64,000 nucleotides of DNA from Nitrososphaerota archaeon (GTDB lineage: Archaea; Thermoproteota; EX4484-205; JAAOZP01). The stretch is from positions 64,001-128,000 of the forward strand of contig JAAOZP010000012.1 in the NCBI GenBank assembly GCA_011605725.1. Direction: 5' to 3'. Below, piece by piece: positions 652-51,474 of the stretch; positions within the stretch are counted from its first letter, which is position 1; every line of letters begins with the position of its first letter. The translations under genes and the position numbers were made by a program. A model generated the notes under the pieces. That model had not been told where the DNA came from, did no database searches, and was given only the letters and a program-made list of their open reading frames with translations.

Positions 652-665
652 TAGCGCGCGCGCTA
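652..665. repeat. Perfect palindrome TAGCGCGCGCGCTA, a (GC)5 tract
   Basis: Read directly; intergenic. Confidence 0.9.
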
Positions 666-795
666 AGGGGGAATAGCTGTATTAGGTTCTTGGCAGACAG
701 TCACCCAAGGCGATAGGGAAAGCGGTTTTGTCCCCGACGTCATGAATATTCTGCTGATAAAGGAAGACGGGTCTTTGAGGCTGGAAAAAGCATAA

Positions 796-2001
796 TTGGG
801 CCAATTCAGTCACTTTAGAAACGTCGAGAGAAGGTATGAAAGGTTTTGTGCAGAAGCCAGTGAAGAAGTACCGGGAAAAGGAGTTGAGGGAGAAGGAGAA
901 TTTCACAAAGCTCATGTGGATTGGGATGATCTTGGGGAGCATGAGATTTTACACCTTAGACATGGAGTACTACAGGAACTTGTAGAGGGAGCAATAGAAA
1001 AGACTAATAGTATGCTGAGGATACAAGAAGAAGCAGGTGTATCGCGAAAAGCCCTGCATGCGATAGAAAAAGGGAGCGATATCATAAGTGTTAAGAACCT
1101 AAAAGGTCTGTGCGATTACTTAGAGATACCGCGTTGGGAAATGGATAAGCATATAATTGGGATCGGTAGTTCTCGAAACCCAGATGCATTAGAGAACCCA
1201 CACCTACCTTTTGACTTCAATACTCCTGAGGGAGCTACGATAATAGCGGCAGCCCTACATGACGGTTATCTTAGGAGTGATGGGACGACTTTCTCATATG
1301 CAAACAAAGATGAGAGGAACGTAGAAACTGTAAAGGAAGCCGTTAAGAAAGTTTTCGGGGATATAAAGCCACTCGAAGAGAAATACGAGTGTGGCGTGAA
1401 GAGAGTGGATTTCATGTCTTGTGCAATAGTGGACGCCTTGGAAAAAATAGGCTTACCGACAGGGAGTAAGACCAAACAGCGATTTCATGTGCCATTATTC
1501 GTCCGAGAAGGCGATGAAGAGTTGCAAAAGGCATACTTACGCCAGACCTTAATGGATGAGGGGAGCTGGAGAGAGTATAAGGGTAGAGTAGAGGAAATAG
1601 CTTATACTCAATCAACATATCTTGATGAGGATAAGCTCACTACTAAGGACATGGAATTTCTCAGGAACTTAGGATTTGAAGAATGTGAAATGCCAACAGG
1701 AGCCCCAGTATACCGTCTTCGTCTTACTAAAGAAGTAAGGGATGAAATAATGAGTGAGGACCCCAATTTATGGAAGGCAATAGAAGAATCTAAACCACCT
1801 AATTTTGAGGAGGAGAGGGAAATGTTCGAAAAATTGTTTGGCGCGCATCCAGATGTGCATCCCAGAGACGTATATTATACAGAAAAAGGAGGTTATAAAG
1901 TGTCATGGGAACTAGTAATTGACGAAGCAGAGGACGCCCGCAGAATTGCGGAAGAACTTAATCTCCCTATACCTAAGCATGGGGGAAAGGAAGGAGAATA
2001 G
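796..2001 (+). CDS. Free-standing LAGLIDADG (DOD) endonuclease-like protein with N-terminal XRE-type HTH
   Basis: HTH-like IQEEAGVSRKALHAIEKG..SVKNLKGLCDYLEI. Two LAGLIDADG-like motifs, ATIIAAALHDG and AYLRQTLMDEG. FSYANKD..VETVKEAVKKVFG follows motif 1. Confidence 0.65.
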   Translation: MGQFSHFRNVERRYERFCAEASEEVPGKGVEGEGEFHKAHVDWDDLGEHEILHLRHGVLQELVEGAIEKTNSMLRIQEEAGVSRKALHAIEKGSDIISVKNLKGLCDYLEIPRWEMDKHIIGIGSSRNPDALENPHLPFDFNTPEGATIIAAALHDGYLRSDGTTFSYANKDERNVETVKEAVKKVFGDIKPLEEKYECGVKRVDFMSCAIVDALEKIGLPTGSKTKQRFHVPLFVREGDEELQKAYLRQTLMDEGSWREYKGRVEEIAYTQSTYLDEDKLTTKDMEFLRNLGFEECEMPTGAPVYRLRLTKEVRDEIMSEDPNLWKAIEESKPPNFEEEREMFEKLFGAHPDVHPRDVYYTEKGGYKVSWELVIDEAEDARRIAEELNLPIPKHGGKEGE

Positions 2002-2028
2002 TGCAGAGTGTTGAGTTATCCTTCTCTT

Positions 2029-3420
2029 TTATCTCCTACCTCCAACAACTACGTCCTTAACTGCGAGATGCGGACCACCGCCGGAGACAGGGACCCACTG
2101 CCCATCCTTCCCACAGCTGCCAGGGAACGCGTGTTTCAAATCGTTTCCGACTCCAATCACGTTTTTCAATACCTCCAGAGTTAACCCTGACATTGAAACG
2201 TTTTGAACTTTCTCTCCTATTTTCCCGTTTTCGATCAAGTAGCCTTCCTGAGCAGTAAAGTAGAACTGCCCCCTCGCTGGGTCGACATATCCTCCGTATG
2301 ATTTCGCCAGGTATATACCATTCTTCACTAGTTCAGCAAGCTCGTCAAAGTTGTATTCACCGTTTTCAACAAAAGTGTTGCTCATCCTAACTATGGGTTT
2401 GCTTGAGAAATTCATTGCCCTAGCAGCCCCGTTTGGCTCAGCATTTAGATGGGCAGCGGTCTCCAGGGAGTGGAGATACCCGACAAGAATACCGTTTTTA
2501 ACTATTTCCCTTCTCACTGCCTTCGTTCCTTCTGAGTCGTAAGGATATGATCCTCTCATACCTGGGAGGGTCGGGTCGTCAACCACGTTTACAGTTTCTA
2601 CTCCAACCCTTTTACCGATTAGCCCTGAAAGAACCGACATGTTAGCCTTAACAGCGTCAGCCTCAGCCGCATGCCCGAATGCCTCGTGGATAAACACTCC
2701 CACGAGGCTCTGATCCATCAGGATGTTCATTCTCCCGCTTGGAGGAGGCAGGGCTTTCAGAAGCTCTACTCCTCTTCTGCCCAGCTCAGAGCCCTCCTTC
2801 ACATAGTCGAACTCCTCCACCAGTTCCCAACCCCTGCTCCCGCCTACGGCGGTGCTCACGTTTTGAACAAGATCACCCTCTTTGGCGACTGCTGAGCCGG
2901 AGAGCCTTATGCTGCAAACCTCGTACTGGACTTCTGAACCTTGACTGTTTACAATAAATTCCTTTTTTACACTGTCAGAGAGCCCGACGGTGGTTGTAAC
3001 TATTCCCTCATTATTCTTCCATATGCACTTGTCGAACTCCAGAGCAGTTTTCACTTTTTCCTCGAGAGAAACACTTCTAGGATCAATTTTCACGTTCAGG
3101 CGAACATCATCCTCATAAGTTTTCTCTATTCTAATCCTTGACTTTTCAGCAACTTTCCCCGAAACGGCTTTAGCCGCCTTATAGGCTTTCTCCAGAGCAG
3201 TATTCATCCCTTGAATAGAGAGATCAGTAGTGTAGTAGAACCCCCAGCCACCGTTGAACAGTACTCTAGCAGCACCGCCGATGCTCGTGTTATAAGATAC
3301 TTCTTCAACAACCCCTTTTCTAATTGAAATGGATGTTGACTCAACCTCTGTTATCCTGAGGTCCGCAAAATCTTCACTTCCCAGATGTAGTAATCCAAAT
3401 AGTTTTCTCATTCCATTCAA
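2029..3420 (-). CDS. tldD: TldD family metalloprotease
   Basis: HEAFGHAAEAD (HExxGH), DDPTL, YDSEG, RMSNTF, C-terminal GSCGKDGQ..V..GGP. Confidence 0.9.
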   Translation of the reverse strand: MNGMRKLFGLLHLGSEDFADLRITEVESTSISIRKGVVEEVSYNTSIGGAARVLFNGGWGFYYTTDLSIQGMNTALEKAYKAAKAVSGKVAEKSRIRIEKTYEDDVRLNVKIDPRSVSLEEKVKTALEFDKCIWKNNEGIVTTTVGLSDSVKKEFIVNSQGSEVQYEVCSIRLSGSAVAKEGDLVQNVSTAVGGSRGWELVEEFDYVKEGSELGRRGVELLKALPPPSGRMNILMDQSLVGVFIHEAFGHAAEADAVKANMSVLSGLIGKRVGVETVNVVDDPTLPGMRGSYPYDSEGTKAVRREIVKNGILVGYLHSLETAAHLNAEPNGAARAMNFSSKPIVRMSNTFVENGEYNFDELAELVKNGIYLAKSYGGYVDPARGQFYFTAQEGYLIENGKIGEKVQNVSMSGLTLEVLKNVIGVGNDLKHAFPGSCGKDGQWVPVSGGGPHLAVKDVVVGGRR

Positions 3421-3530
3421 TCTGGCGTACCAGTTGTTTAAACGCTTTTATAACCTTTACGCACACGTTTTTCCAACTGAAGGATCAATAGCAGTAAAGG
3501 CATTAATATTACTCTAGTGTTTCAACCATT

Positions 3531-4874
3531 ATGATTGAAGACAGGGCTGTTGAGCTCCACAGGAAGTATGGCGGCAAGATCCAAGTTATTCCAAAAGTAC
3601 CTATTAAAAGCTTTGAAGACTTCTCCATCTGGTATACGCCGGGAGTTGCTTCTCCATGCAGACTGATATCCTTAGATAAAGACCTTTCATTCGAATTAAC
3701 GTCTAGATGGAACATGGTTGCCGTGGTTAGCGACGGCAGCAGGGTTCTTGGCCTTGGGAATATTGGACCCTACGCCGGATATCCGGTTATCGAGGGAAAA
3801 TGCCTACTCTTCAAGTTTCTAGGGGGTGTTGACGCTGTTCCAATAGCCTTGGCGACGCAAGATGCAGATAAGATAATAGAGATGGTTAGGCTGATCTCAC
3901 CATCTTTCGGCGGAATAAACCTGGAGGACATTGAAAGCCCAAAATGCTTCCAGATACTTGAAACTCTTCAAAAATCTCTGGAGATACCTGTTTGGCACGA
4001 TGATCAGCAGGGCACTTCGCTCGTGGTTTTGGCAGCGTTAATTAACGCGCTTAAAATTGTTGGAAAAAAGCTGGAGGAGGCTAAGATAACGATAATAGGA
4101 TCCGGGGCCGCAGGAATGGCTACTGCGAGGCTGTTGATGGAGACGGGTGTCAGTGGGAGAAACATGCTTATCGTTGACAGCAAAGGGATTTTAAGCTCTT
4201 CAAGACACGATATGGAAAAACTATCAATATTAAACCCTTGGAAGGCAGAGTTAGCTAGAATGACGAACCCTGAGAATAAGGAGGGGAGTATTGAGGACGC
4301 TTTGAAGGGTTCAGATGTCTTAATCGCGCTGTCAGTGCCTAAGCCAGGTACAGTTAAGAAAGAATGGATAAGTAAGATGGCTGGAGACCCCATAGTCTTC
4401 GCCCTGGCAAACCCTCTTCCTGAAATATGGCCTGAGGATGCTAAGGCCGGAGGCGCTAGAATCGTTGCGACAGGCAGGAGTGATTTTCCAAACCAGGTTA
4501 ACAACAGTTTAGCCTTCCCCTCGATGTTCAGAGGAGTTTTAACGGTAAGGTCTAGAGCAATAACTAATGAGCTTTGCATAGAGGGCGCCAGGTCACTAGC
4601 CCGTTATGCTGAAAGCAAGAGGTTGAGCGAGAACAGTATACTGCCGACAATGGACGATTATATGGCTTATGTTGAAGTCGCACGAAACGTTGCGAGAAAA
4701 GCTATTGAACTAAACTTGGCAAGGAGGAAATATTCTGATAATGAGCTGTACGATGCGATACATTCTATAATAGCGTATCAAAGGGTTCTAATGAGGAACA
4801 TGATTAAAAGCGGGTTGACTGGCGAATATCAGCCTAACACTTCATGCATGGCTACAGATGAGCAGCCTGAGTGA
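3531..4874 (+). CDS. NAD(P)-dependent malic enzyme
   Basis: YTPGVA, SDGSRVLGLGNIG, INLEDI, HDDQQGT, GSGAAG, ATGRSDFPNQVNN. Confidence 0.92.
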   Translation: MIEDRAVELHRKYGGKIQVIPKVPIKSFEDFSIWYTPGVASPCRLISLDKDLSFELTSRWNMVAVVSDGSRVLGLGNIGPYAGYPVIEGKCLLFKFLGGVDAVPIALATQDADKIIEMVRLISPSFGGINLEDIESPKCFQILETLQKSLEIPVWHDDQQGTSLVVLAALINALKIVGKKLEEAKITIIGSGAAGMATARLLMETGVSGRNMLIVDSKGILSSSRHDMEKLSILNPWKAELARMTNPENKEGSIEDALKGSDVLIALSVPKPGTVKKEWISKMAGDPIVFALANPLPEIWPEDAKAGGARIVATGRSDFPNQVNNSLAFPSMFRGVLTVRSRAITNELCIEGARSLARYAESKRLSENSILPTMDDYMAYVEVARNVARKAIELNLARRKYSDNELYDAIHSIIAYQRVLMRNMIKSGLTGEYQPNTSCMATDEQPE

Positions 4875-5286
4875 GGACAAGCGCGGGTTATGCGTATGGA
4901 CAATAGGGTATGGAGGCCTTTCAAAAGACTCTTTCTTAAGCCTATTGAAGAAGCATCGGATCGATCTGCTGGTGGATGTCCGCAGGTTTCCGAATTCCAG
5001 GCTTGAATATTTCCGCCGAGAAAGCCTGGAGAAATGGCTTCCCAAAGAAGGTGTTGAATACTTGTGGCTTGGAGAGGAGCTTGGAGGCTACCGTCGAGGA
5101 GGCTATGAGAAACACATGGAGACTAAGGTTTTCAAAGAAGGAGTTAGGAGGCTTCTGGAACTGGCGAGGCATGGAAGGACATGCATAATGTGTCTGGAAA
5201 CGGATCCAAAATATTGTCATAGAAGGTTTATAGCATCATGTTTGAGAAAAAACGGAGTCAGAATACTCCATATAACAAGGGGTTAA
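4858..5286 (+). CDS. DUF488 family protein
   Basis: WTIGY, LVDVRRFP, LGG.R, MC.E..P..CHR. The true start may be slightly downstream. Confidence 0.8.
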   Translation: MSSLSEDKRGLCVWTIGYGGLSKDSFLSLLKKHRIDLLVDVRRFPNSRLEYFRRESLEKWLPKEGVEYLWLGEELGGYRRGGYEKHMETKVFKEGVRRLLELARHGRTCIMCLETDPKYCHRRFIASCLRKNGVRILHITRG

Positions 5287-5369
5287 TAAAGCAGCCGGAG
5301 ACTAACCCCTGAATTTAGGATTAAATATTTCGAATAAGTAGAAACAGGCTTGCCTCCAAATTCTCCTGA

Positions 5370-5600
5370 TCATAGCTCTATCGTTAGCCCGTCGTAAGCA
5401 ACTTCAACATTTTTGGGCTTTAACCTCTCGACCAGTTCTTCAGCGCGCGCGCTAATCTTTAAATCATTGTTTACCAGTGTTGAAGACTTTGTCCTCACGT
5501 TTCTACCGCCAGCATTTCTTGCCCTCCTGCAATTCGCGCACTGGCAAAACACCGCTGGCCACTCCTCGGCCGCGCCTGTCCCCAGAAACATGACCCTCAT
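5370..5600 (-). pseudogene. PhnP-like metallo-beta-lactamase with a large in-frame internal deletion
   Basis: The N-terminus FLGTGAAEEWPAVFCQCANC..RTKSS..DLKI is joined via AGCGCGCGCGCT (SARA) to the C-terminus EELVE..VAYDGLTIEL. The HxHxDH core is absent. Confidence 0.8.
5442..5453. repeat. Palindromic AGCGCGCGCGCT tract at a deletion junction
   Basis: Read directly; it separates the N- and C-terminal remnants of the PhnP-like gene. Confidence 0.9.
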
Positions 5601-5669
5601 ATTTTGACCCCGAAGCTTCAAGTAGGTTTATATAGGCTTACCGTTAACGAGCTCGGCCGTTAGCCAGCA

Positions 5670-7136
5670 TTAAGAATAGTTAGGCGCATGGTTTTGTAAA
5701 CGTATTTCACCACGAGGATTTAAATGAGGTTTTGCCTTCTCATGTGAGAGAACCCTTAACTCGTAAGTCCATGCATCATAGTAAAGGTTTCCTCCTTTCC
5801 ACTCAACCTCTCCACGCTGATTATCCACAGTATCCGACCTGAAGTGAGCCTTGGGAGGAATAAAGTTTGAAGAGATATCCATGTTAGCCACAAGCCTGTA
5901 GTGGTCGATATTTCCGAAGTAGAACCTGCGGTATTTCTCGATGTTTCTAAAATGGCCGCCAAAAGACGGGTCTGCGTAAAGCCACCCGTATGGTTCTACG
6001 TAGAACTGGGCCCAATCATGCGGACTCGGCTTAACCGGATTCAGATACCATCCTGATTGCCACCTTGCAGGAACCCCGCTTATCCTGCAGAGGGTTATGA
6101 ATAGCAGGGCTTGAACCCCGCAGTCTCCTCTAAGGTTTCTCGCAGCATAATCGCTGATGCATTCTATCGTCGAGTATTCCGGTACTAGGGCGTAACTAAC
6201 GTTTTCAGTTATCCACTCGTATATGTGCCAAGCCTTAAGATACGGGTTTGACTCTCCGGAGACAAGCTCGTCTGCAAGCCTTCTCAGATACGGGGTGAAA
6301 ACTATGTGGGGTAGAGTCTCAGAAGTGTATCTTCTGTAGGATTCGTCCTCAAAGTACGAACCTATCTTCTCGGGCTTTATCTCAACATAGGCTGCGTTAA
6401 CCGCATACTCGTATTCAACACGGAATTCAAGCTCCTCGCCCTTAATGGACTTTTTCTCGAAATATATTGTTCTTTGTGGAGTATCCTCTGGAGCTATAAA
6501 ATAATTCTCTGGAATTGTAGACACGAGTCTAACAACCGGTTGCAACAGGCTCCTTTGAGGAAAGGGCATCCAGACTCTCACAGTTTCACCATCCGGAACA
6601 ACGTCATGCTTAACTCTCAACACCGTCAACACCCTGTTCCATACCGGGTCAAAATATCTGGCTTCAGACCTTCTTCCTCTGAGAATCACGGCGTCTAAGT
6701 GTTTGAACAGCATGCTCCGAATCCCATTATTATCTTCCCTCGCTTTCAGCCTACTTTTAATCTCAACCCTTTCCCTAAGAAGATTAGGCAGGAAGTTTCT
6801 AAATATTCTTATCTCCCCCTCTATCCTAATACAGTCTATGATTCTCCTTCTAACCCATTCGTCAAACTCGTCCCTAGTCAAACCCTGAACCCTCTCCTTA
6901 AGTAAGGCGAAAGCCTCTTCTTCAGAAAGCGAATAATCCCACCTGATCCTCCGAATTCTTTCCAATTCCCACTCTAATCTGGATTTCAGGAAGCTTGGAA
7001 GCCGCCTCCCCTCACGCAGGATCTGGTTTATCGCGGTAACTGCTTCTTCGAAAAGCCCGTCCTCCTCAAGGCGTCGAATCCTGTCCGGCAGACCAGTCGT
7101 CAAGAATTCGCTTCCAAGAACGTCTGTTTTTCGCAA
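5670..7136 (-). CDS. Transglutaminase-like superfamily protein
   Basis: Triad motifs GDCGVQ (Cys), PHDW (His), YADPS (Asp); CRISGVPARWQSG. Confidence 0.82.
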   Translation of the reverse strand: MRKTDVLGSEFLTTGLPDRIRRLEEDGLFEEAVTAINQILREGRRLPSFLKSRLEWELERIRRIRWDYSLSEEEAFALLKERVQGLTRDEFDEWVRRRIIDCIRIEGEIRIFRNFLPNLLRERVEIKSRLKAREDNNGIRSMLFKHLDAVILRGRRSEARYFDPVWNRVLTVLRVKHDVVPDGETVRVWMPFPQRSLLQPVVRLVSTIPENYFIAPEDTPQRTIYFEKKSIKGEELEFRVEYEYAVNAAYVEIKPEKIGSYFEDESYRRYTSETLPHIVFTPYLRRLADELVSGESNPYLKAWHIYEWITENVSYALVPEYSTIECISDYAARNLRGDCGVQALLFITLCRISGVPARWQSGWYLNPVKPSPHDWAQFYVEPYGWLYADPSFGGHFRNIEKYRRFYFGNIDHYRLVANMDISSNFIPPKAHFRSDTVDNQRGEVEWKGGNLYYDAWTYELRVLSHEKAKPHLNPRGEIRLQNHAPNYS

Positions 7137-7236
7137 TACTGCTAATCTTAAAGCACAGAGGAATATTTAGGCATTAAGGCAGACACAGCTAAACCCTTAT
7201 GTATTGCTTGGGTTAACACAATAATGGTGAAGCCCA

Positions 7237-7921
7237 ATGTGTATGGAGAAGCCGTCGCCCTTCCCCTGCTCAGAGGAGAAGATACCCAGCTATATAGCCT
7301 ACCGCGTTAACGAGCGGATCCGGATTGACGGACTGTTAGACGAGGCTTGCTGGCGAATAGCACCCCGCTCCCCCCGCTTCGTAGATCTTGTTAGCGGCCG
7401 GCCGGCCCTCTACGACACGTATGCAGCAGTACTATGGGACGATGATAACCTGTATGTAGGCTTCTGGGTGGAGGAGCCTCTTGTAGTCGCCACCCTGACC
7501 GAGCGCGACTCTCCGATTTACGAGGATAATGACGTGGAGCTTTTCATCGCTGGCAGAGACGCCTACTACGAGTTTGAGATAAACGCGCTTGGAACCATCT
7601 ATGAGGTTCTCTTCATATGGGAAGATGCTTACGAGAAATCCGGCTACAGTAGTCTTCCAGAGCTTAGAAGAGACGTTCCCGGTGTAAGACTGTTTCCAGG
7701 AATAGGATTTAGAAACCATCCTCGTGGCCGGCGAATAGGATTCTGGAACTGGGATTTTCCTGGATTAAGAGCAGCGGTCCACGTCGACGGAACTCAATAA
7801 TAACCAGGATAGGGATAGGGGTTGGACGGTTGAGCTAGCCTTGCCCTGGAAGGGGATGAAGGTGCTCGCCATGTCTGACAACCGGCCGCTGCCTCCTAAG
7901 GATGGAGAAACCTGGCGTATG
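7237..7921 (+). pseudogene. Carbohydrate-binding family 9-like (CBM9/DOMON) protein, frameshifted and 3'-truncated
   Basis: IDGLLDEACW, LWDDDNLYV, DNDVELFI, YYEFEINALG. The frameshift is at about 7793-7797 (GGAACTCAAT where G-T-L-N is expected). The second frame continues NNNQDRDRGWTVELALPW..PPKDGETWRM and ends at a (GC)5 tract. Confidence 0.8.
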
Positions 7922-7932
7922 AGCGCGCGCGC
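7922..7932. repeat. AGCGCGCGCGC tract at the truncation point of the CBM9-like gene
   Basis: Read directly; follows ..TGG CGT ATG (WRM). Confidence 0.9.
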
Positions 7933-7958
7933 AGCATGGGGGGCTTCTGGGGAGAGTA

Positions 7959-8277
7959 ATGTTAATGAAAAACTTTGCTCTTAGTTTGAAAACAACCAAG
8001 TTAAGAAGAACAGTAAACCAGTTTAGAAAACGGGGACAAGACTATACATGCGCTAAGACGAGTGAAACAAATAAAGCCTCATCTTATTTCCTGTTGCTAA
8101 TACTTCTGGCCTCCTTAGCAACTGTTACCCCATGCGTCTCCAGTGAAACAGGCTTTTACGCTAACGAAGACTTCTCAGGATTCTACGACTACGATAAGTC
8201 CATTCCTCTAAATGCTACCGAGGAATTAATCAGGGACGAGGGTGTTTGCAAAATATACAGGGTCTACTTCAACTCTA
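7959..8277 (+). pseudogene. 5' remnant of a secreted protein (possibly an alpha/beta-hydrolase or esterase)
   Basis: Signal-like YFLLLILLASLATVTPCVSS, then FYDYDKSIPLNATEE..KIYRVYFNS, after which it runs into the antisense strand of a PhnP-like fragment. Start uncertain. Confidence 0.45.
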
Positions 8278-8462
8278 TGCTTAAGGACGTGGTGATACGT
8301 ATCTGGTGGAAAATCGATTTTTAAATCCGTGTTTATCAGGACAGAGGACCTGGTTCTAATGTTTTTGCCCCCCGCATTTTTCGCCCTCCTGCAATTTACG
8401 CATTGGCAGAATACTGCTGGCCATCCTTCGGTTGCACCTGTTCCTAGGAACACAACCTTCAT
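8275..8462 (-). pseudogene. Second PhnP-like MBL-fold 5' fragment
   Basis: MKVVFLGTGATEGWPAVFCQCVNC..RTRSS..DLKIDFPPD..HVLKH, then the family signal is lost. Paralogous to 5370-5600. Confidence 0.75.
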
Positions 8463-8870
8463 ATATTACTCAACGCAGAATTTAACAGGTGGCTTATATG
8501 TTTACTGTTAACAGGCTTAATCATCAACCCGCATCATGCCTTAAACCGTTTAGCATTCATGGAGAATTTACGATTGTGAGCAGTTCCATCTATAGATATC
8601 AACTGACGCTCGTTAAAGAATTCATAGAGCTAGCTATTAAGGTGGTTAAATATGGTATTGCCAAAAATCATGTTCCATGCATTTAATATGATGGTCGAAA
8701 AAGGGACTTATTATTGAAGAAGTCGAATTCTCGGATTTAACATATGAAAAAAGGGTTTAAAGGAAATGAGTTCGATTGGACATAGCTATCGCAGTAATTC
8801 ACTTGAAAGAAACGGATCCGAATTATTTAAGGATGTTTTGTTAGAGAATAGCCTTTATAATGACACCGAT

Positions 8871-10577
8871 TCATTCTGTTTGAGAAAGAGCAGTCATCAG
8901 CTGTTGCCTAATCTCGTTAAACTTCGAAACGTTTTTCTCGTAGTCGGTTATGGTTCTGACGAGCTGGTCTGCTAGCTCCCTGGCCTTAACGGGGTTTTGT
9001 TCCTCCAGCATCTTGAGCAGTTCGTAGTCCTGAACCCCTAGTCTTAAAACTTCAAGCCTTATGGAGCTCAATGGGCCTTCTCTTCCAGGGTATATTATGA
9101 AAGCGTCGCCAGGAGGCAGGTTGTTAGGCTCCACGTTTTTAAACGGGTTTTCAGACCAGTAGTTTAGTCCCCAGTGAAGATAGCCTGAAAGATTATACTT
9201 GAAGTTTATCCAGTGCAGGATCCTGACTTTTATTAACGGATAGTCGATGAACCTGTTCGGATACTTTCCAGTTGGAGCAAGACAGGTATAGAACCATACT
9301 TCTTCTCCAGCTGCTTTTCTCTGATTGTAAAAAGCTTGATTCTCATCAAACTGGTTTAACAATGGGACCCAGACGTCTAAGGCTCCGACAAGCTCTTCAG
9401 TAGCCTGGTTCGCTTCAATTATCCTTATTTTCGGCGCCAGCTTCCTAACGTAGCCGGCGAGTATTCTATAGCTTTCTGAACTTGCAGGAATCGGTTCGTC
9501 GGCTAAATGCTGCATGTAGATATTGATCCACCCTTTTTCCTCCAGATGCTTCTGTAATTGAGGAAGGAATTTGGAGAGGAAGCAGTAGTACTCTTTTGAA
9601 GTTATGTCCATGGAAGGCACCTTATAGGCTAGGGATCCATCCGCTCTGTAAACCATTGTTTCGTAAGAGTAGAACTCCTTTGCTTCCCATTCTTTCCTGT
9701 AGGCAAGATGCCCTCCTTCAATTCTTCCAACCACGCCTTCTTCGATGAAAAGCTCAACCCAGCGATCAAAGTTTGAAAAATCGCATTCAATAGTTCCGTT
9801 TGAGGCTTCTATGAATTTTATTAATTGGAGGATTGGAGTTATAATTATGTTTTGACGATACTTAGAAAGAAACTTAGCATAGTTTCTAATCAACTTCCAA
9901 TATTCCTCATCTCGTGACTTTATGTTATAATAATCAAAGAGCTTGTAATCTCCAAACCAATTTGTTATCCACAACGTTCTTCTTGAAGTGAGTATAACAG
10001 GATAAACCTTTAAAGTAATTTGAATCGAAGCATTTGACTTTTCTGAGATCACATAAATCTCTCCCGTGTAGTTTCCTGGGGGTGCTTCTGGTGGGACGAA
10101 AATAGTAACCCAAACTGGTTGAGTTTCTCCGGATTTCAGATCAATATACTCAACATTCAACAGTGGGTCCGGAAAATCCAATGGGGGTGAACGTACTACT
10201 CGCACCAATTCCTCAGGAGGAGTAGCTGGCGTATTCTTACTAACCGGAACGAATCCAACAAAGTTCGCAGAAAAATTCATCTTAAATCCATCCGGACCCT
10301 CAAGGAATCCAGTTTTAAGATGAACCTTTAGATCTTCTCTTCCTACGGTTATGGCGAATTGCGCTGCAGCATACTCATTTCTTACAGCCTCGACATACAA
10401 AGAAGTTTTTCCACTCGGCTTTGTATCTTTAAAGATCTTTTCAAGCGGATCTGCAGCCCAAACTAAGAATTCCCCCTCTATTTGATATTCCTCCTTCATT
10501 TGATTAATCGATAATAGTGAAACTAGACATAAAAATATTGCTGAAACTGTCAGTATAATAATCTTCAGTTTTCTCAT
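8871..10577 (-). CDS. Secreted or membrane-anchored DUF4091 (GH123-like) glycoside hydrolase
   Basis: N-terminal TM/signal, ADEP motif, WFYTC..P.G.YPNRFID, GYLHWG, PPGDAFIIYPG..SSIRLE.LR.G.QDYE. Confidence 0.75.
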   Translation of the reverse strand: MRKLKIIILTVSAIFLCLVSLLSINQMKEEYQIEGEFLVWAADPLEKIFKDTKPSGKTSLYVEAVRNEYAAAQFAITVGREDLKVHLKTGFLEGPDGFKMNFSANFVGFVPVSKNTPATPPEELVRVVRSPPLDFPDPLLNVEYIDLKSGETQPVWVTIFVPPEAPPGNYTGEIYVISEKSNASIQITLKVYPVILTSRRTLWITNWFGDYKLFDYYNIKSRDEEYWKLIRNYAKFLSKYRQNIIITPILQLIKFIEASNGTIECDFSNFDRWVELFIEEGVVGRIEGGHLAYRKEWEAKEFYSYETMVYRADGSLAYKVPSMDITSKEYYCFLSKFLPQLQKHLEEKGWINIYMQHLADEPIPASSESYRILAGYVRKLAPKIRIIEANQATEELVGALDVWVPLLNQFDENQAFYNQRKAAGEEVWFYTCLAPTGKYPNRFIDYPLIKVRILHWINFKYNLSGYLHWGLNYWSENPFKNVEPNNLPPGDAFIIYPGREGPLSSIRLEVLRLGVQDYELLKMLEEQNPVKARELADQLVRTITDYEKNVSKFNEIRQQLMTALSQTE

Positions 10578-10762
10578 TCTTCTATGTTTGTCAGCAGCCC
10601 ATTCTATTATTAAACTTTTTTACTAATACCCCTAACGCTAACCAGCACATACCGTTCGATTTCAGAACCAATTCTGGTGATTTACCCATAATCGCAATAG
10701 CGTTTAGCGAGCCCTGCGGGAAGACGATTATTCGTAAAGTGGAAGCCGCTGTTCCCGAGGGG

Positions 10763-32727: not shown

Positions 32728-33033
32728 TTATATTATGGCCTCAGGCATCAAAACCACTCTACTAGTCTCGTTTAAAACGGTTGACTGAGCCTCATCCACC
32801 GGGACCACCCTTCCGTCCAACACTATCGTAAAGTCCTCTGAGAGTCTTTCTGTTTCCCCGGAGAAAACCCTTTCCTTAAACCTCTTCCCATATTTATCCG
32901 CCATTTTCTTAACCAGATCGTAAACAGTACTTCCTTCTTTCATATCGATAAGCGTCTCAGTAGACCCAACGATATCCCTAAACTGGCCTACGAGCTCCAC
33001 GCGAATCTTCATCACTCCGTTAACCTTAGGCAC
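32728..33033 (-). CDS. MoaD/ThiS/SAMP-like beta-grasp protein lacking the C-terminal GG
   Basis: KIRVEL.GQFRDIVG, TV.DLVK...KYG, IVLDGR, L.E...V.LMP; ends PEAII-stop. Confidence 0.7.
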   Translation of the reverse strand: MPKVNGVMKIRVELVGQFRDIVGSTETLIDMKEGSTVYDLVKKMADKYGKRFKERVFSGETERLSEDFTIVLDGRVVPVDEAQSTVLNETSRVVLMPEAII

Positions 33034-33463
33034 ACTGCTTTAAAATAAATGTTTTCATTTAAAGCTAGTTAGGCGCAATATTTCCGGCACATGGCTTGTC
33101 ACGCATACGTCTTTCCTGCGGGTTAAAATAGCGTTCATACCTATTAATGACATGGGGCCTGATCAACATTTTGGAGCCCACGCCAAGGAGGCTTGAACGA
33201 TAAATTTCCAGGAGGAGGTTGAACGCTACATTATGGCACTGCTTGAGGAAACCTCTCCGGAGAAGGCTTCATCACGCGAGAGAGTGGTGGACTGCCTGTA
33301 ACGCCGCCTTTAGCGGCTGCCGAAGCCTCGCTAACCAAGGAGTGAAATATGGAAAAAGTAGCAATGCTAAGGGTTTGAAGACATCCGTGGAACAATGAAG
33401 CACACCGGCGCGCGGGTTTTCATGAACTATACGCATAAAAACTTTGCTGAGAGCTTGAAATCC

Positions 33464-35154: not shown

Positions 35155-35315
35155 TTTGAAATATCTTGACTCATTACACTTTATATACTTTTAGCATCTG
35201 AGTAGAAAAACGTAAGCATTAATACGAGATGGTCAGGTCAACATTAGCGTACTAAACAGATGGTAACCATAGTAAAGTTAATATCGCCAGAAAAAATCCT
35301 TCGGCAATATGAACT

Positions 35316-35324
35316 AGCGCGCGC
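35316..35324. repeat. AGCGCGCGC tract at the 3' truncation of a membrane-protein remnant
   Basis: Read directly. Confidence 0.8.
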
Positions 35325-35760
35325 CCATAATCATGAAGGAGAACACCATCACCGTCAGAGAGCCGTTATAAGCAACAGGGAGACTTTCCCGCCGAAACCC
35401 TTCCGGAGCAGGAAAACCCAGAAAACAACGTAAAGTGCTGAACCTGCAGCAGACTGTATGGGGAACAGGCCTAGAAGATTCAGATACAGCCATGCGAGGA
35501 GAAACAGTAAGCATAAGGCGTCTGCCTGAAGCTTCCCACGGTTTTTAAAAATCTGAACAATAATGGTTGTCCTGCTGCAGAATGTTGAGCCGATAAGGTA
35601 GGAAACCATGCTGAAGAAGAGGAGGCCCCAAAGCCATATATCAGGGTAAGTGAACTTCGAATAAGGGATGTGGAGGATAAGCACCACATAGGGTGCGGCG
35701 TAGAATGATACTAGCGTCAGCGAAAAAATCGCCTTATGGTTTACGAATATTCAGACGCTT
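35325..35760 (-). pseudogene. Frameshifted, truncated polytopic membrane protein remnant
   Basis: Successive hydrophobic segments in one frame (AIFSLTLVSFYAAPYVVLIL..LLITAL) continue after a shift (TVMVFSFMIMG) and end at the (GC)4 tract. Boundaries are approximate. Confidence 0.45.
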
Positions 35761-38952: not shown

Positions 38953-40233
38953 TTACGCACCTCGCCTCAATTTCCTCGTTATGCTTGCCAATTCTTCTGG
39001 GCCAAGCTCCTCGTGAGAACCCGACACTCTGGGAGGCTTCTCGCTGAGACTTATGAGCCCTGCCCTCGGTATTCCTTGGGAATGAATTAGTTCTATAGAT
39101 CTCCTAGCTTCACTCTCGCTGATCTCCCCTATCTTAACTTCATACCCTATCATCGGGGCCCTGCCCTTCGAATCCAAGATGACTATATCCACATCCCCCT
39201 TCCCCCCAGGCAGAATCATGTAGCTCCTCACCCCTCCTAGATACTCGGCAAGCATCTCCCCCAGGCTAAACTGTAGCTCCCTACCCAACACGCTTAGAAT
39301 AATGCCTTCATCTATTTTTACGCGCGGCGATTCGCTGATGTTCAGCTTCTGGTCAAGATAATAGACTAGCGAGAGCAGGGGAGACCTGTGCTTGAAATAG
39401 TTCCTCGAACCCCTGGTTTTCCATAGCGGGATTTTCTCTAGAATCCCCATGCAGGTAAGCCTTTCAAGCAAACCGGTTACTGTTGGAAGGCCGCCAGATA
39501 TCAGGTTGTTCGCGGTTAAAACCCCTGAGATCTCCGCTGGCATCCATATGCCTCCTCCCACTATCCTGATGACCGCGTCGTAAACCCTTGTTAACATCCT
39601 CTCCTCCTCCTCAAAAACCTCTCCGACAAGCCCAGGTGCTGACGCAACGAAGTATTGAATCTTATTGCGGATTTCTGAAAAAACATCCTTTTCGAATGAG
39701 ACCATAGGGATCACCCATGGGTCTCGGACAATCAGCCCCCATAGTAAGGCGTTCCTGAGGGAAGAACATATCTTACTGAGAGAGAGAACAGCGTCAGAGT
39801 AGCTTATCAAGTCCACCTTGAATGGCGAGAACAAGCCTAGGAGAGGACTCTTTCTCTCGAAAACCCTTCTCACGATGCTGAGGCTCGAACCGCTTGCAAC
39901 CAGCCTTCCGTTCGGATGGTTCGCGGCAATCGAGTCCCAATACTTATCTGGCAACCTTTGAAACTCATCCAATAGGACAACCCTTCCATCCCTCAAGAGG
40001 TTTCCGATACGTCTAACCGCCTCCTCAGGATTAACATGTGAAAAACCGTTTTCATCCCAAGCGGCAACGCTGCCAGACCTGGTCACCATAAAGTAGTTAG
40101 ACTGGGTGAAAACCCTTTTTAGCAGGAAGGTCTTCCCGGTTTTCCGCCTCCCGTAAACCAGTATCCATCCTCTTAGACCTCTTAATTCGTCTTCCTCTCT
40201 CCTGCTTACTACGATATGAGGAATATTCTCCAT
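38953..40233 (-). CDS. Archaeal P-loop ATPase with wHTH and C-terminal PD-(D/E)XK (DUF234-like) domain
   Basis: VYGRRKTGKT, LLDEFQ, SGS, DVDIV..GYEVK. Confidence 0.85.
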   Translation of the reverse strand: MENIPHIVVSRREEDELRGLRGWILVYGRRKTGKTFLLKRVFTQSNYFMVTRSGSVAAWDENGFSHVNPEEAVRRIGNLLRDGRVVLLDEFQRLPDKYWDSIAANHPNGRLVASGSSLSIVRRVFERKSPLLGLFSPFKVDLISYSDAVLSLSKICSSLRNALLWGLIVRDPWVIPMVSFEKDVFSEIRNKIQYFVASAPGLVGEVFEEEERMLTRVYDAVIRIVGGGIWMPAEISGVLTANNLISGGLPTVTGLLERLTCMGILEKIPLWKTRGSRNYFKHRSPLLSLVYYLDQKLNISESPRVKIDEGIILSVLGRELQFSLGEMLAEYLGGVRSYMILPGGKGDVDIVILDSKGRAPMIGYEVKIGEISESEARRSIELIHSQGIPRAGLISLSEKPPRVSGSHEELGPEELASITRKLRRGA

Positions 40234-43092: not shown

Positions 43093-43103
43093 CTCTCTTC
43101 AAT

Positions 43104-44114: not shown

Positions 44115-44164
44115 GCCACGGATTAACCTCGGGGTTTTATAAGTATTGGTGTACAAGCCTGAGC

Positions 44165-45193: not shown

Positions 45194-45211
45194 GGCAAAG
45201 CTGTAAGCATG

Positions 45212-47050: not shown

Positions 47051-47546
47051 CTCTAGCCGTCTTCAAACCACTATTCGATTCGCCACTACCTGCATGAAGT
47101 TGAACGACATACGGATCACTACTGTTCAACTCTATTATCCTCCTGTCGAATTCATCACCACTTATATTTAATTCTTCAGATACTTTAAGCCGGAGATCAG
47201 TTATTCTCACATAAGGTGCTATTGGACTAGACCTTACCAAGTCGTTATACTTCAGCCTTAAGGTTTCGAGGAAACTTTGAGGCGACAGTTGCTCAGCCTC
47301 TTTAAGCCTAGCGTATTTTAAGAAAGGAAGGTTCCAAATGCTCTTCATGCAATAGGCCCTGCCAGCCTCAGAAGTCCTATACTTTTTAACGGTCCTAGTC
47401 CTCCCCTCAACCGGTTCAAGATACCCTTTTTTAACTAGTTCTTTAAACTCTTTTTCAGTAAGCCTGCCAGCCTTCTTAACCATTTTCTCCGTGACCCCTT
47501 TAGGAGTGTCGGCGAATACAAGTGCAAGCAATTGAAACTCGTTCAG
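47022..47546 (-). CDS. Small double winged-helix-like protein, partner of the downstream ATPase
   Basis: ELVKKGYLE..YRTSEAG and VRITDLR..S.DEFD..I.EL..QLH. Overlaps the ATPase start. A CTG start at 47546 is inferred from the RBS; the ORF track gives TTG at 47531. Confidence 0.6.
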   Translation of the reverse strand: MNEFQLLALVFADTPKGVTEKMVKKAGRLTEKEFKELVKKGYLEPVEGRTRTVKKYRTSEAGRAYCMKSIWNLPFLKYARLKEAEQLSPQSFLETLRLKYNDLVRSSPIAPYVRITDLRLKVSEELNISGDEFDRRIIELNSSDPYVVQLHAGSGESNSGLKTARGVYHYAIVK

Positions 47547-47696
47547 CCGGTATCACCTTATTAAAATGGGCTAAAGTAGTTTTTAAAGCTTGCCTGTCGG
47601 CCACAGTAAGCCCCATCTCCAGGGTGTTCAGAGGTTTAGATAAAGTTAAATCCTAATAGGCGAGACGTTTCTACACAGGAAGGCAAACGGTTAGAG

Positions 47697-48161
47697 ATGA
47701 GGGTGAAAAGGAAGCGTAAAATGGTTTTTCCCAGAACCATGTTTGAATGCAAAGTGTGCGGGAAATGCTGCGTTGAGGATGTTAAGCGTGGTAGACGGAT
47801 AGTTCTAACCGAGATTGACGCCTTAGAAATATCTAGCGCTACCGGAATAGGTTTGAACGAGTTCGCGGAGAAAAACAGTAGTGAAGCCTATCCGTACGCT
47901 ATTAGGCTTGTCAACGGAAGATGCTTCTTCCTTAATCAGGACAACAAGTGCAGTATTTACCCGGTTAGACCTCTGGTGTGCAGGTTCTACCCTTTCGTAA
48001 TGCATAAGATTGGAGAGACATACGTGTTTCACGCTGACCCTTTCTGTCCAGGACTTGGGGAAGGCACTTATCTTGACGAAGAATATTTCGAAAGGCTTGT
48101 CGAGCTGGCTGAGAAGCGTTTAAAAAAGCCTACTGGGCTGTTCGAGGCGCGCCGCAGTTAG
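47697..48161 (+). CDS. YkgJ family Cys-cluster protein
   Basis: FECKVCGKCC, CFFL...CSIY..RP.VCR.YPF, CPGLG. Confidence 0.85.
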   Translation: MRVKRKRKMVFPRTMFECKVCGKCCVEDVKRGRRIVLTEIDALEISSATGIGLNEFAEKNSSEAYPYAIRLVNGRCFFLNQDNKCSIYPVRPLVCRFYPFVMHKIGETYVFHADPFCPGLGEGTYLDEEYFERLVELAEKRLKKPTGLFEARRS

Positions 48162-48705
48162 GGCACCTGGTCTCACTCTGCGGGAAAACAGTTCCACAAT
48201 ACTTGCATGAAACAGTGGATAGCACGTGCTGAATCTGGAGAGGCGGGGAAACATGTATTTCGATTGTTTTACTTGTCGCATCAGGCCGCCCTTCTACAGC
48301 AGCAACCCCCTTCAGACTCCAGGCTACGACCCTATCTAGGCTCTTGAAAGAAGGCTGGGCTCCTGGAGGTATTAGGATTTTAAACTGGTAGCTTTGGACA
48401 AAACCCTCGGGAACGTGAAGAGGCCCAGCCAACTGTGGTCTAGCTGAAAATATGACTGCAGAATCCCAGACCTGTTGCTCAACCTCCCTTTTAAGAGAAG
48501 CATTGTAAACCCTCCTGGTTCTACGTACCCGCTCAATACATTCAAGCTCGCACCTTATCTCCGTGCAGTCGAACTCTTCCTGAGACTCAACCTGTACTGC
48601 GCCCTCCACAGTGTCGCCAAGATAGAAGACCTGTTTACTCAGAAACAGAGAGATGTTTACCCTGGGCGGTGTAACCTTATCCCTGAGTTTCTTAAACAGG
48701 CTCAC
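48130..48705 (-). CDS. Arrestin-N/Spo0M-like Ig-fold protein with C-terminal zinc ribbon
   Basis: FYLGDTVEG.V.V, Y.F.I.IP..A.PSF...V.W.LK; CKYCG..CPNCG. Confidence 0.6.
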   Translation of the reverse strand: MSLFKKLRDKVTPPRVNISLFLSKQVFYLGDTVEGAVQVESQEEFDCTEIRCELECIERVRRTRRVYNASLKREVEQQVWDSAVIFSARPQLAGPLHVPEGFVQSYQFKILIPPGAQPSFKSLDRVVAWSLKGVAAVEGRPDATSKTIEIHVSPPLQIQHVLSTVSCKYCGTVFPQSETRCPNCGAPRTAQ

Positions 48706-48765
48706 AGCAGGATTTTTTCAACGGGGGGATTTAAGTTTTAAACGGCGCTGAATTAAAACGCGTGC

Positions 48766-49923
48766 TTACAATGGTATTAGCAGAAGGCTTGACAAGATTA
48801 TAACCAGCCCGCCGATTAAAAAAGGCAGATTTATACTAATGGAGCCGGAGTATCCAGCTAAGAGGGGTCCGATAATGTTCCCCAAGGAGCCTACAAAGTT
48901 GACTACATTGAAGTCCCTCGCCCTGGCTTCATCACTACAATGTTTTTGAATCAAGTAGCTTCTAAGCGGGAGCCATACTGAAGCCCCGAGAGGATCATGC
49001 ATAAGCCATAGTGCTGCAGACGTTGTGAAATCACTCGGCGCAGTGGCTAATGCTGTGAAAACCCCCTGTACGCATGTGAAAAGGATCAGGGATGATTTGT
49101 AAGAAAACTTTTTCAAGCCTGTGACAATCCTGCTGCTGAACAACATGGGTATTCCCAGACTAAGCCTGTGAACAGTCATCAGGATTGAAAGCGTCTCTGG
49201 AGATAGTGAGAATTTCTTTGAAAAGAACATTGGTGTGATGAAGCAGTGCGTAGCTGAGCCTCCAATCGTTACAACAAGCCCTGAGGCAGCCAGAATAATA
49301 AGCCCCCTGTTTAAACCCTTGCCTCCAGCCTTTTCCACAAGGGGCTTCTCAACATGCCGTACTCCTGCAGAATCCTGTTCGCTGAAGAATAAAGCGATCA
49401 CTAGGAAGCCTATTACTTGAAGAAGCCCAGAAAAAACGAAGGGAAGCCAGTAACCATAGATGCTTATTAATAGCCCGGAGGATGCGAGGCCCAATGCTTG
49501 AGAGATGAACTCGAGCCCCGATACTTTAGAGTAGGAGGCAATGAATCCCCGACGATCCTGCTCGTAGACCATGGTTGTGAAAACAGCGTTCCTGATCGCA
49601 ACCGCGGAGTCGAAGAGAATCTTGACAACACCCATTATAATCACCGATTTAAAGTAGGGTGTTAGAAGGTGGGAGAGCCCTCCGAGCAGTAGAGCTAACG
49701 CAATGAAAATTTTCCTACCGTACTTATCTGACGCAGCCCCTAGAAGGATGCTGAGGAAGGCGATGAATATTGCTGAGGCTGTGAAAACATACCCGATTTC
49801 CATAAGCGGAATGGAAACATAGTCCATGTAAAGGGGAAACAGGATTTCGTAAAGCCCGAAGGAGAAGCCGAAGAGCCATGTGGATGCGGTCAGCGCAGTC
49901 AGTCCTTTTTTTCTGCCTGACAT
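48766..49923 (-). CDS. MFS transporter
   Basis: About 12 TM helices; GAASDKYGRK motif A. Confidence 0.85.
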   Translation of the reverse strand: MSGRKKGLTALTASTWLFGFSFGLYEILFPLYMDYVSIPLMEIGYVFTASAIFIAFLSILLGAASDKYGRKIFIALALLLGGLSHLLTPYFKSVIIMGVVKILFDSAVAIRNAVFTTMVYEQDRRGFIASYSKVSGLEFISQALGLASSGLLISIYGYWLPFVFSGLLQVIGFLVIALFFSEQDSAGVRHVEKPLVEKAGGKGLNRGLIILAASGLVVTIGGSATHCFITPMFFSKKFSLSPETLSILMTVHRLSLGIPMLFSSRIVTGLKKFSYKSSLILFTCVQGVFTALATAPSDFTTSAALWLMHDPLGASVWLPLRSYLIQKHCSDEARARDFNVVNFVGSLGNIIGPLLAGYSGSISINLPFLIGGLVIILSSLLLIPL

Positions 49924-49999
49924 GTGCTACGGGCCGTTCAGCAAGAGGCTTATAAGCATTGACAACAAAGTTTTTAAAAGGCTTTTAAGCAATAATAAC

Positions 50000-50548
50000 A
50001 TGGCCAAGTACAGTACGGGTGCGAAATATTTTGCTCAACCAGGCCCAGGAAATACTGGTAAAGTGATTAAGGCGGTTGCGGAAAGAATAGAGAAAGGCGG
50101 TGTTACGCAGGTTGTTGTCGCAAGCACTTCCGGAAGGACGGGAGTCAGGTTTGCCAAGGCTTTAAAGGGTAGAGCACAGGTTGTAGCCGTATCCCATGAG
50201 AAGATGGAGCCTAAGCTGAAGGAGAAGATAATTAGCCTGGGCGGAATAGCTGAGGACGGTACGCACCTGCCGCTCCACGGAAGGGGCATGGATAAGGTTA
50301 GGGATGCCTTCTACACGCTGGGACAAGGATTCAAAGTAGCTTTAGAAGTCGTTCTGATAGCTGCAGATAGGGGGCTTGTTAAACCCTATAGGGACGTCGT
50401 AGGCGTCGGTGGAAGTGGAGAGGGTGCTGACACAGCAGTAGTGGCGAGAGCAACCCCGACGAAGGAGGTTTTCAGCAGCGATAAGTCGAAGAGGCTTGAA
50501 GTAAGGGAAGTAATCTGCATGCCGCTGAAGAAGAAGTGGTGGGACTGA
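50000..50548 (+). CDS. Pyruvate kinase C-terminal-like domain protein (archaeal DUF1867 type)
   Basis: YF..PG..NT, VVVASTSG.T, GQG.KV..E....AAD.G, GG...GADTA, VRE.IC.P. Start moved to the ATG at 50000. Confidence 0.75.
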   Translation: MAKYSTGAKYFAQPGPGNTGKVIKAVAERIEKGGVTQVVVASTSGRTGVRFAKALKGRAQVVAVSHEKMEPKLKEKIISLGGIAEDGTHLPLHGRGMDKVRDAFYTLGQGFKVALEVVLIAADRGLVKPYRDVVGVGGSGEGADTAVVARATPTKEVFSSDKSKRLEVREVICMPLKKKWWD

Positions 50549-50684
50549 TCATCCTAGGAGCAGTTTAAACCGAACAGTTAAGCCGGCGTAGACCATTAGA
50601 AAGCTTCTAACAGCGTAAACTTTTAGAAATAATATTCTTGACTAAATCCATATATCCTGTTCATTAGCAGGTTTTTGTTTAGAA

Positions 50685-51359
50685 ATGGTCAGGAGGCTGC
50701 CGGACAGGTTTCTTAAATGGGCTTACTTCGACAGAGTCCGCTTCATCAAATCCATTCTGGACACCGGTAATCCGGATAAAGCGATGCTTCTCATAGAGTC
50801 GACAAGACACAACCCAGCGCTCTGCACAGCCCGGATTAAGAGCTCTGGGATAGAGTTGAACGCTAAGATAGTTGGCGCCGGCTTCGTGCCTAAGCAAAGC
50901 TTTCTTGAAGACGCAGTTAGAGAACTGAGGTCACATGTGGAGGCAGGCAGCTCAATGACGAGGGAGGACTATGCTGAAAAAGGACTGCAAATTCTGCTTA
51001 GACACGTGTACTTCGAAAGCGAGGATGAGGCGAATCGTAGAGTCGACTTTACGAAAATAGCAACCCTAGAAATAGGTGCAGGAATAGCGGGATCCTCCAG
51101 ACACACATGGGAGAACGTTCAGAGTTACAGGCGAGCAGTCATGCTTTACTACATGCCTCCCAACACCAGCTTCGAGGTCAGGGGCATGCTCGACGTATTG
51201 ACCGAGGGAAACTATTTTGAATTCGTCAATTTAGCCCATGATGCATTCCATTACACACCCGTTGAGAAGAGGGTCTTCAAACCATGCTATATTTTGAATG
51301 TTGAAGAGGTTTATGATAACAGTGCTACGCAGGAGGGTTTTGGCCGTCTGCTTGAATAA
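50685..51359 (+). CDS. Pyridoxamine 5'-phosphate oxidase-like split-barrel protein
   Basis: HNPALCT, NAKIVG.GF.PK, HTWEN, PP..SFEVRG, VEEVYDNS. Confidence 0.55.
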   Translation: MVRRLPDRFLKWAYFDRVRFIKSILDTGNPDKAMLLIESTRHNPALCTARIKSSGIELNAKIVGAGFVPKQSFLEDAVRELRSHVEAGSSMTREDYAEKGLQILLRHVYFESEDEANRRVDFTKIATLEIGAGIAGSSRHTWENVQSYRRAVMLYYMPPNTSFEVRGMLDVLTEGNYFEFVNLAHDAFHYTPVEKRVFKPCYILNVEEVYDNSATQEGFGRLLE

Positions 51360-51474
51360 TTGTGAGCACGATGAAAGACTCCTGACGTTCTCATAATGGT
51401 TCATTAAGCCTATTCCCAATACCCTTTCTCCGCCAGCGCGCGATACATGTAAGCCGATTAAACGCATTAAGAGT

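Follow-up and report, generated by a model that had tools for sequence, protein, structure and literature searches.

The 64,000-nucleotide stretch of DNA from a hot-spring archaeon analysed here (the window: positions 64001-128000 of contig C1 in assembly G000, which comprises 2.23 Mb at 46% GC in 20 contigs) carries short tracts of alternating GC, of the form A(GC)nT, that are almost certainly seams, i.e. filler made as new DNA on broken ends and left in place when the ends were joined. The tracts are non-native, lie at exact joints, are lineage-specific and young, and decay by transitions. They occur together with an extra gene of the primase small-subunit type (PriS-like) and a structured RNA borne by its 3' end. 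From the comparison of these three we favour, as somewhat probable, an RNA-templated system for writing and joining DNA ends, built on a primase-fold polymerase.

An earlier note on the window, made from its letters, had pointed to GC tracts at gene breakpoints, and its description of their sequences holds. We searched the window DNA against 30 relatives and compared it base by base with the closest one, G002 (88-90% identity). The alignments end exactly at the tracts, and for all four (GC)4-5 tracts of the window (654-663, 5443-5452, 7923-7932 and 35317-35324) homology with sister genomes breaks exactly at the tract (653, 5442, 7922 and 35316). Where the window has 8-12 nt of GC filler, relatives have native gene sequence, of 606 bp, ~480 bp and >1 kb. 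Seven overlapping matches to GCGCGCGC are found at these four sites; shuffles that preserve dinucleotides average 0.43 and never reach seven. As the note had stated, none of the four lies inside an intact gene, the one at 653 being intergenic. The seams and the genes that they touch are:

652..665, no strand: TA(GC)5TA seam joining the module at 666-2028 to the 3' region of the gene upstream (3-581)
666..2028, plus strand: module of 1.36 kb with a gene for a helix-turn-helix (HTH) protein, following the seam at 653; in relatives, only its 3' pieces remain
5370..5621, minus strand: remnant of an MBL-fold gene, 83 aa, in frame, with a four-codon filler (SARA); NCBIfam PhnP and MBL N-terminal matches
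5443..5454, no strand: filler GCGCGCGCGCTA in place of 606 bp within the MBL-fold (PhnP-like) gene
7237..7922, plus strand: CBM9-like gene remnant, by translation frameshifted near 7800 and cut at 7922
7923..7932, no strand: (GC)5 filler in place of ~480 bp in which the CBM9 gene ends and an esterase gene begins
35315..35324, no strand: TA(GC)4 seam truncating a membrane-protein gene
35325..35750, minus strand: membrane-protein gene remnant, from the comparison with G009

At 5442, the joint reads ...GTTCTTCA, then GCGCGCGCGCTA, then ATCTTTAAATC, and G002 holds 606 bp of native MBL-fold gene between identical flanks, with window 3276-5442 aligning to L011 1393-3558 and window 5455-7922 to L011 4165-6629; no microhomology is present at the break. 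The gene is intact in G002 (274 aa, Lactamase_B_2). The remnant has lost a net 594 bp, or 198 codons, with its reading frame kept, and it reads DLKI/SARA/EEL against DLKIDFPPD in the G002 ortholog, in agreement with the earlier view that the tract is probably not native coding sequence. At 7922, the joint reads ...GGCGTATGA, then (GC)5, then AGCATGG. The alignments of all eight relatives end there, G002 goes on with native sequence, and homology picks up again directly past the tract. The cut falls after WRM, as previously noted, in a gene that is also frameshifted and whose G002 ortholog encodes 291 aa with CBM9 domains.

At 653, homology with G002:C54 and G006 extends to ...CTTATAT and then breaks. 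G002 bears its own decayed scar 4 bp off, fused to the end of tldD, and GCGTGCTA stands at a different joint of G010's own; these separate scars indicate that one locus underwent three independent events. An exact repeat of the 41 nt that end the tldD region (window 2030-2070) also lies 169 nt before the start of the window (G000:C1:63832-63872), and G002:C54 is arranged alike. The fourth tract ends a membrane-protein remnant, as the note had it: homology with G009:C66 begins at 35322, right after the tract, and the frame is open for at least 580 aa in G009, with ~130 codons remaining in the window. No paralogs of the 35355-35750 remnant were found in the same genome.

Two further copies that the earlier note had listed beside these four are less convincing:

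33407..33414, no strand: GGCGCGCG, partly native, on the right-hand border of an insert of 398 bp (33013-33410), a doubtful member
51426..51444, no strand: 19-nt filler TTCTCCGCCAGCGCGCGAT where G002 has 1460 bp, a weak case

The 398-bp insert is flanked by a 13-nt duplicate of a gene start, and the CGCGG at 33407 is native. At 51435, G016 and G007 likewise lack the 1.46 kb, which leaves the direction of change ambiguous.

For a wider test we used the 181-kb contig G002:C16, which is collinear with a 200-kb stretch of G000 (C1:6869-216191). Of the six G000 tracts that could be evaluated, five are no more than 2 nt from where an alignment ends (null expectation 1.2% per site), and the sixth is the tract at 35316, an exact joint against G009. 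Conversely, all five evaluable G002 tracts are absent from G000, and none of the 11 is common to the two genomes at orthologous sites. Among the G002 tracts, one joins the equivalent of C1:59062 to window 3276, and another replaces 950 bp that are intact here:

39022..39970, minus strand: 950-bp stretch of an AAA_14 gene, intact in the window, where G002 has TAGCGCGCGCTA instead

G016 aligns straight through this region with its gene intact as well. Two of the five G002 tracts are pure insertions of 8-10 nt with nothing lost. Tracts also seal insertions and rearrangements, and in the collinear stretch a tract, intact or decayed, stands at about 12 of 24 large indel joints and none at the rest. 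The comparison with intact orthologs that the earlier note had proposed gives a uniform result: in the unbroken, ancestral alleles both end points are free of tracts and the breakpoints have no TA, which supports the note's inference that the tract is added at rejoining.

Three further regions may be recorded here. Upstream of the window, G000:C1:20751-37823 holds 17 kb that have no counterpart on the collinear G002 contig; with its 10 tracts of (GC)4, it resembles a mosaic island rich in seams. At window 53369-54223, G002 is ~770 bp shorter with only TCGCGCGG at the joint, perhaps a (CG)3 seam of minimal size. Collinearity with G002 is lost over the region 8279-10722, which includes a GH123 glycoside hydrolase gene (8871-10577, minus strand) whose G002 counterparts lie at the extreme ends of contigs C21 and C27, and which is probably multi-copy or variable and breaks assemblies.

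The absence of the tract at both end points in relatives excludes recombination between pre-existing sites. Of the sources that the earlier note had considered, the footprint or recombinase core of an excised element is not supported, and a Z-DNA-prone breakage hotspot does not account for tracts missing from the unbroken allele. A constant palindrome with TA flanks at module borders is what site-specific recombination between palindromic cassette or att sites, or the footprint of a TA-targeting transposon, would leave. We nevertheless consider an origin of this kind very improbable, as hundreds of bases of flanking gene are gone, the ancestral alleles lack both site and TA, and the ends of an element cannot be seen; the five clean joints already contradict it. 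We likewise discarded a larger repeat or element surrounding the tracts. Genome-wide, A at -1 and T at +1 are conserved in 76% of tracts and T at -2 and A at +2 in 47%, with nothing farther out, which also agrees with the earlier remark that the flanks are unlike.

The tracts of the whole genome support the definition of a small unit. We counted 189 tracts of (GC)4 or longer in G000, of which the earlier note had asked how many there were, and its commonest 10-mer is AGCGCGCGCT, with 88 sites. A(GC)nT does not become steadily rarer as n grows (398, 59, 88 and 20 for n=2, 3, 4 and 5); tract lengths range from n=3 to n=8 with a peak at n=4. This uneven distribution, together with the conservation of only two positions per side, defines the unit as (T)A(GC)4-5T(A) rather than a larger repeat. 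Open reading frames (ORFs) of at least 100 aa cover 86% of the genome, yet 85% of the A(GC)4-6T tracts lie outside them, compared with 13% and 10% for the control words AGCGCT and GGCGCC. Single-base variants of the tract are mostly transitions, indicating that tracts decay once formed.

Being the most frequent 10-mer, the tract resembles HIP1 of cyanobacteria, a short palindrome that is likewise the most over-represented word of its genome. HIP1 lies largely within genes, at conserved positions. The archaeal tracts, in contrast, are insertions at rearrangement joints rather than products of point substitution, are mostly extragenic and are not shared between the sister genomes G000 and G002. 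The joint alignments rule out enrichment of a HIP1-like palindrome through methylation-linked mismatch repair, and we give next to no credence to that route or to selection for such a word. Equally negligible, in our judgement, is an assembly or scaffolding artefact. All genomes used are metagenome-assembled genomes (MAGs), but the phenomenon recurs in over 15 assemblies that come from different studies, with megabase contigs and one complete chromosome among them; in addition, tracts decay by transitions at orthologous places, and the variants of the palindrome are genome-specific (see below).

Within the genus, exact counts of AGCGCGCGCT are 118, 88, 70, 33, 32, 18, 16, 6, 3 and 3, with none in seven genomes, and no comparable excess was found in 44 genomes of other genera. 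Tract-rich genomes of the genus are larger (2.0-2.3 Mb) than tract-free ones (1.2-1.8 Mb, save one 70%-complete assembly of 0.6 Mb). This does not fit the genome-reduction signature suggested in the earlier note, nor do the sealing of insertions and the large indel joints, about half of them, that are free of tracts.

The note had also named a repair polymerase or primase as a possible source and proposed a search for repair enzymes. Ku (PF02735) gave no match in G000, which is 93% complete, and neither did the reverse transcriptase family RVT_1 (PF00078). The best candidate for the writer is indeed of the repair primase or polymerase kind:

G000:C7:378918-379793: extra PriS-like gene (candidate writer), from its profile match, motifs and predicted fold

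This gene scores 31.5 bits against Pfam DNA_primase_S (cut-off 26.8; 29.1 bits in the genome search). A canonical PriS is encoded elsewhere in G000 (C11:22886-23338, 65 bits), which makes the gene on C7 an extra paralog. Its catalytic motifs VDVD (DxD), SGVRGFHIHV and SVDP align to P. horikoshii PriS, and DxD, SGxxGFHxHVxDF and SxDP are invariant in 16 family members that are 39-80% identical. The family comprises at least 82 proteins from MAGs of Bathyarchaeia, annotated only as hypothetical protein or primase subunit. [quoted passage not shown]

Within the genus, the gene is found only in tract-bearing genomes (G000, G002, G006, G007, G012 and G016, with a fragment in G008). In G010 it is lost save for its last ~50 nt, and only 3 intact tracts stand there against 78 with one mismatch, compared with 18 and 76 in G006, 32 and 80 in G007, and 0 and 9 in the tract-free G003. 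This loss of the gene with decayed tracts resembles a natural knock-out and supports the link between gene and tracts. Overall, tracts appear confined to genomes in which the gene with its RNA is present or was so until recently. Furthermore, loci that we fetched solely for distant members of the family (40-47% identity, from other Bathyarchaeia, on megabase contigs and one complete chromosome) are also full of alternating tracts, while a homolog in G023 with 31% identity was set aside, having no recognisable RNA and no tract excess.

Around the gene, the start overlaps one of two full-length RadA genes of G000 that are 50% identical (C7:377873-379018 and C11:75612-76538), and a HEPN/nucleotidyltransferase pair comes after it. 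Six genomes of the genus retain the pairing with radA, distant genomes do not, and the radA paralog was rejected as a conserved partner on this ground. One distant PriS-like gene (L100:8400-8470, DATEYW010000095.1) is cut after ...HVHVMDFNYYD by TTAGCGCGCACG and so appears to be itself truncated at a decayed seam. A further fragment lies on a 3-kb contig (L096, CAYHAB010000107.1) of a MAG labelled Thermodesulfobacteriota, probably a binning error.

Past the stop codon of the PriS-like gene lies a conserved RNA element composed of a stem P1, a linker AAAAAC, a 9-bp stem P2 and a small P3, in which P2 encloses GGAGG...GGGUAACCCUGUGAG. Over 12 copies, 94% of the cells pair, against 34-47% in slid controls, with compensatory changes at six pairs. 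A covariance model detects the RNA in 7 of 61 genomes, namely six tract-rich ones and G010, and the element is still recognisable 3' of homologs that are only 40-47% identical, with different P2 stems. The RNA also occurs with 5'-truncated fragments of the gene and as a stand-alone type with a TATA-like box. The stand-alone type (G002:C43:57133-57228, G016:C58:2221-2316, G009:C56:7170-7266 and G007:C10:4742-4838; not found in G000) has a TTTAAAAA box ~35 nt upstream and an 8-bp P1 (AGCGUGCA/UGCACGCU), with UAGCGCGCU 15-20 nt past P2 in G002 and G016. The truncated copies share the 3' end of the gene and the RNA (G016:C64, C69 and C85, G002:C5 and G000:C12; loci L043, L049, L052, L046 and L044) and recall 5'-truncated retrocopies; the RNA or the mRNA may thus sometimes be copied into DNA. 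In G000 the only intact RNA (C12:18839-18936) stands beside a broken copy of the gene, in a mosaic (C12:18265-18936) that combines the RNA with a (GC)4 tract and with fragments of radA (aa 171-218) and, frameshifted, of the PriS-like gene (aa 134-290). This mosaic is a decayed duplicate of the radA/PriS-like/RNA unit, closed by a seam of its own. In G006, a tract downstream of the RNA was considered as a template and dropped, the comparison with G010 showing it to be a scar that replaces 32 nt.

The connection between RNA and tracts lies in one position of the RNA, between GAUGAAA and A(A/G)AAC. The motif at this aligned position is mostly GCGCUA but differs in two genomes, and we compared it with exact genome-wide counts of the palindromes:

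G000: RNA motif GCGCUA; A(GC)4T 88, A(CG)4T 2, ATCGATCGAT 0
G063, G064 and G065: RNA motif GCGCUA; A(GC)4T 45, 74 and 53, A(CG)4T 2, 7 and 5, ATCGATCGAT 4, 4 and 3
G061: RNA motif GCGCGUA; A(GC)4T 106, A(CG)4T 30 (control 1), ATCGATCGAT 2
G062: RNA motif GCGAUC; A(GC)4T 40, A(CG)4T 5, ATCGATCGAT 151 (control 7)

A(CG)4T is thus found 30 times in G061 versus 2-7 in the other genomes, with a single site for the reversed-pattern control, and ATCGATCGAT 151 times in G062 versus 0-4 elsewhere, with 7 for its control. These counts show a correlation: the palindrome of each genome co-varies with the motif in the RNA beside the primase-like gene. This speaks against the non-templated filler that the earlier note had proposed.

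The letters of the seams can be derived from the motif. The complement of GCGCUA is TAGCGC, and two such tails give TA(GC)nTA; two TAGCGC hexamers joined blunt yield n=4, and overlap or slippage yields other lengths. At 5442 and 7922 the native terminal A is reused on one side, which fits an end aligning on a template, and both TA pairs are new in the 950-bp case of G002. We infer that the RNA acts as the template and the PriS-like protein as the polymerase, and that the addition is symmetric on both ends. A motif of 5-7 nt in the RNA, 5'-GCGCUA-3', would be copied onto each 3' end by a ribonucleoprotein of primase and RNA, giving 5'-TAGCGC-3' tails and slipping on the GC repeat. The tails being self-complementary, any two ends could anneal, to be filled in and then ligated, and the final joint would read (T)A(GC)nT(A) regardless of the material lost or captured between the ends. 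We consider it an even call whether the reading extends to its full breadth, in which this archaeal ribonucleoprotein, its primase-fold polymerase paired with RNA from the 3' end of the polymerase gene, writes tails on any broken ends and so performs a telomerase-like templated end joining, independent of reverse transcriptases, that leaves programmable, genome-specific seams and drives deletion, fragment capture and mosaics in Bathyarchaeia.

Several observations weigh against the RNA-templated reading. All of its support comes from sequence comparison and is correlative, and the co-occurrence of gene and tracts within the genus is confounded by common ancestry. G008 has 33 intact tracts but only a fragment of the gene was found there, and none was found in G009. 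In G000, the 5' half of the P2 hairpin is missing from the RNA of the full-length gene on C7. Of the large indel joints, about half are free of tracts. The adjacent RNA also leaves some tracts unexplained: in G061, A(GC)4T (106) exceeds A(CG)4T (30), and G062 also has 40 A(GC)4T, for which further RNA copies or past history must be assumed. For G066, whose RNA reads ACGCAUA, the predicted ATGCGCGCAT, i.e. AT(GC)3AT, has 0 copies, in a genome with few tracts. Finally, read-through into the AAAAAC linker is not evident in the tract flanks (TAAAAAC 10.9% vs 8.1%).

The prediction not borne out in G066, the missing read-through and the variation in length from n=3 to n=8 would suit a primase or polymerase whose intrinsic preference leads it to make alternating GC without a template or on itself, by hairpin, slippage or terminal transfer, the RNA being a mere cofactor or a regulatory 3' element; archaeal PriSL does have terminal transferase and microhomology end-joining activities (PMC12019639, PMC3333859). 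However, such synthesis accounts poorly for the fixed TA flanks and the peak at n=4, and for genome-specific switches to A(CG)nT and (GATC)n that match changes of two to three letters at a single position of the RNA, and we regard it as unlikely. The RNA might instead guide a nuclease or an integrase, or the palindrome might be a tiny mobile unit inserted by the ribonucleoprotein, with co-evolution of guide and target. Guiding predicts the same co-variation of RNA and palindrome as templating does, and the two pure small insertions in G002, without loss, would suit it. Yet unbroken alleles contain no target, the origin of the letters of the tract is left unexplained, and no nuclease or transposase gene is conserved beside the RNA outside the genus, so that we hold this alternative to be distinctly improbable.

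With RNA templating as the favoured reading, the closest parallels are telomerase, including its addition of de novo repeats at internal breaks, and the bacterial DRT10 system (bioRxiv 10.1101/2025.10.16.682844). In both, as appears to be the case here, a motif in a dedicated structured RNA dictates repeats on DNA 3' ends, and natural changes of the motif accompany changed repeats, which for the archaeal case is known by correlation. The differences lie in the enzyme and in the product. The archaeal candidate polymerase has the AEP primase fold instead of the reverse-transcriptase fold, in a genome, G000, with no match to RVT_1; and the product is a self-complementary internal seam rather than a chromosome end or a defence product, all tracts studied lying internally between unrelated flanks. 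Archaeal PriSL(X), an AEP that takes part in end joining as well, performs terminal transfer, annealing and extension in the microhomology-mediated end joining of double-strand-break repair (PMC12019639; PMC3333859); here, by contrast, an extra PriS paralog carries its own RNA, and a constant palindrome is added rather than microhomology used that is already present in the flanks. The PolDom of Ku/LigD NHEJ (Methanocella 5dmu, M. tuberculosis LigD), which is among the Foldseek matches, is similarly an AEP-fold polymerase that adds nucleotides before ligation. In that pathway, however, the filler is short and variable, unlike the defined, genome-specific palindrome seen here, and G000 has no detectable Ku. 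Our literature search on GC palindromes or RNA-templated primases in archaea returned nothing relevant, and we found no published description of a telomerase-like gluing of DNA ends of this kind.

For archaea that lack Ku, the route of double-strand-break repair is not yet settled, and a dedicated pair of enzyme and RNA that writes defined sticky ends would, if true, be a new principle of repair and the first RNA-templated DNA synthesis by an enzyme of the primase fold. The seams are readable, such that each rejoining event can be dated and mapped, and deletions, insertions and captured gene fragments stand directly on record in these genomes. The natural variants of the template (GC, CG and GATC) suggest moreover that the end-joining sequence may be programmable, an idea that is directly testable in vitro.

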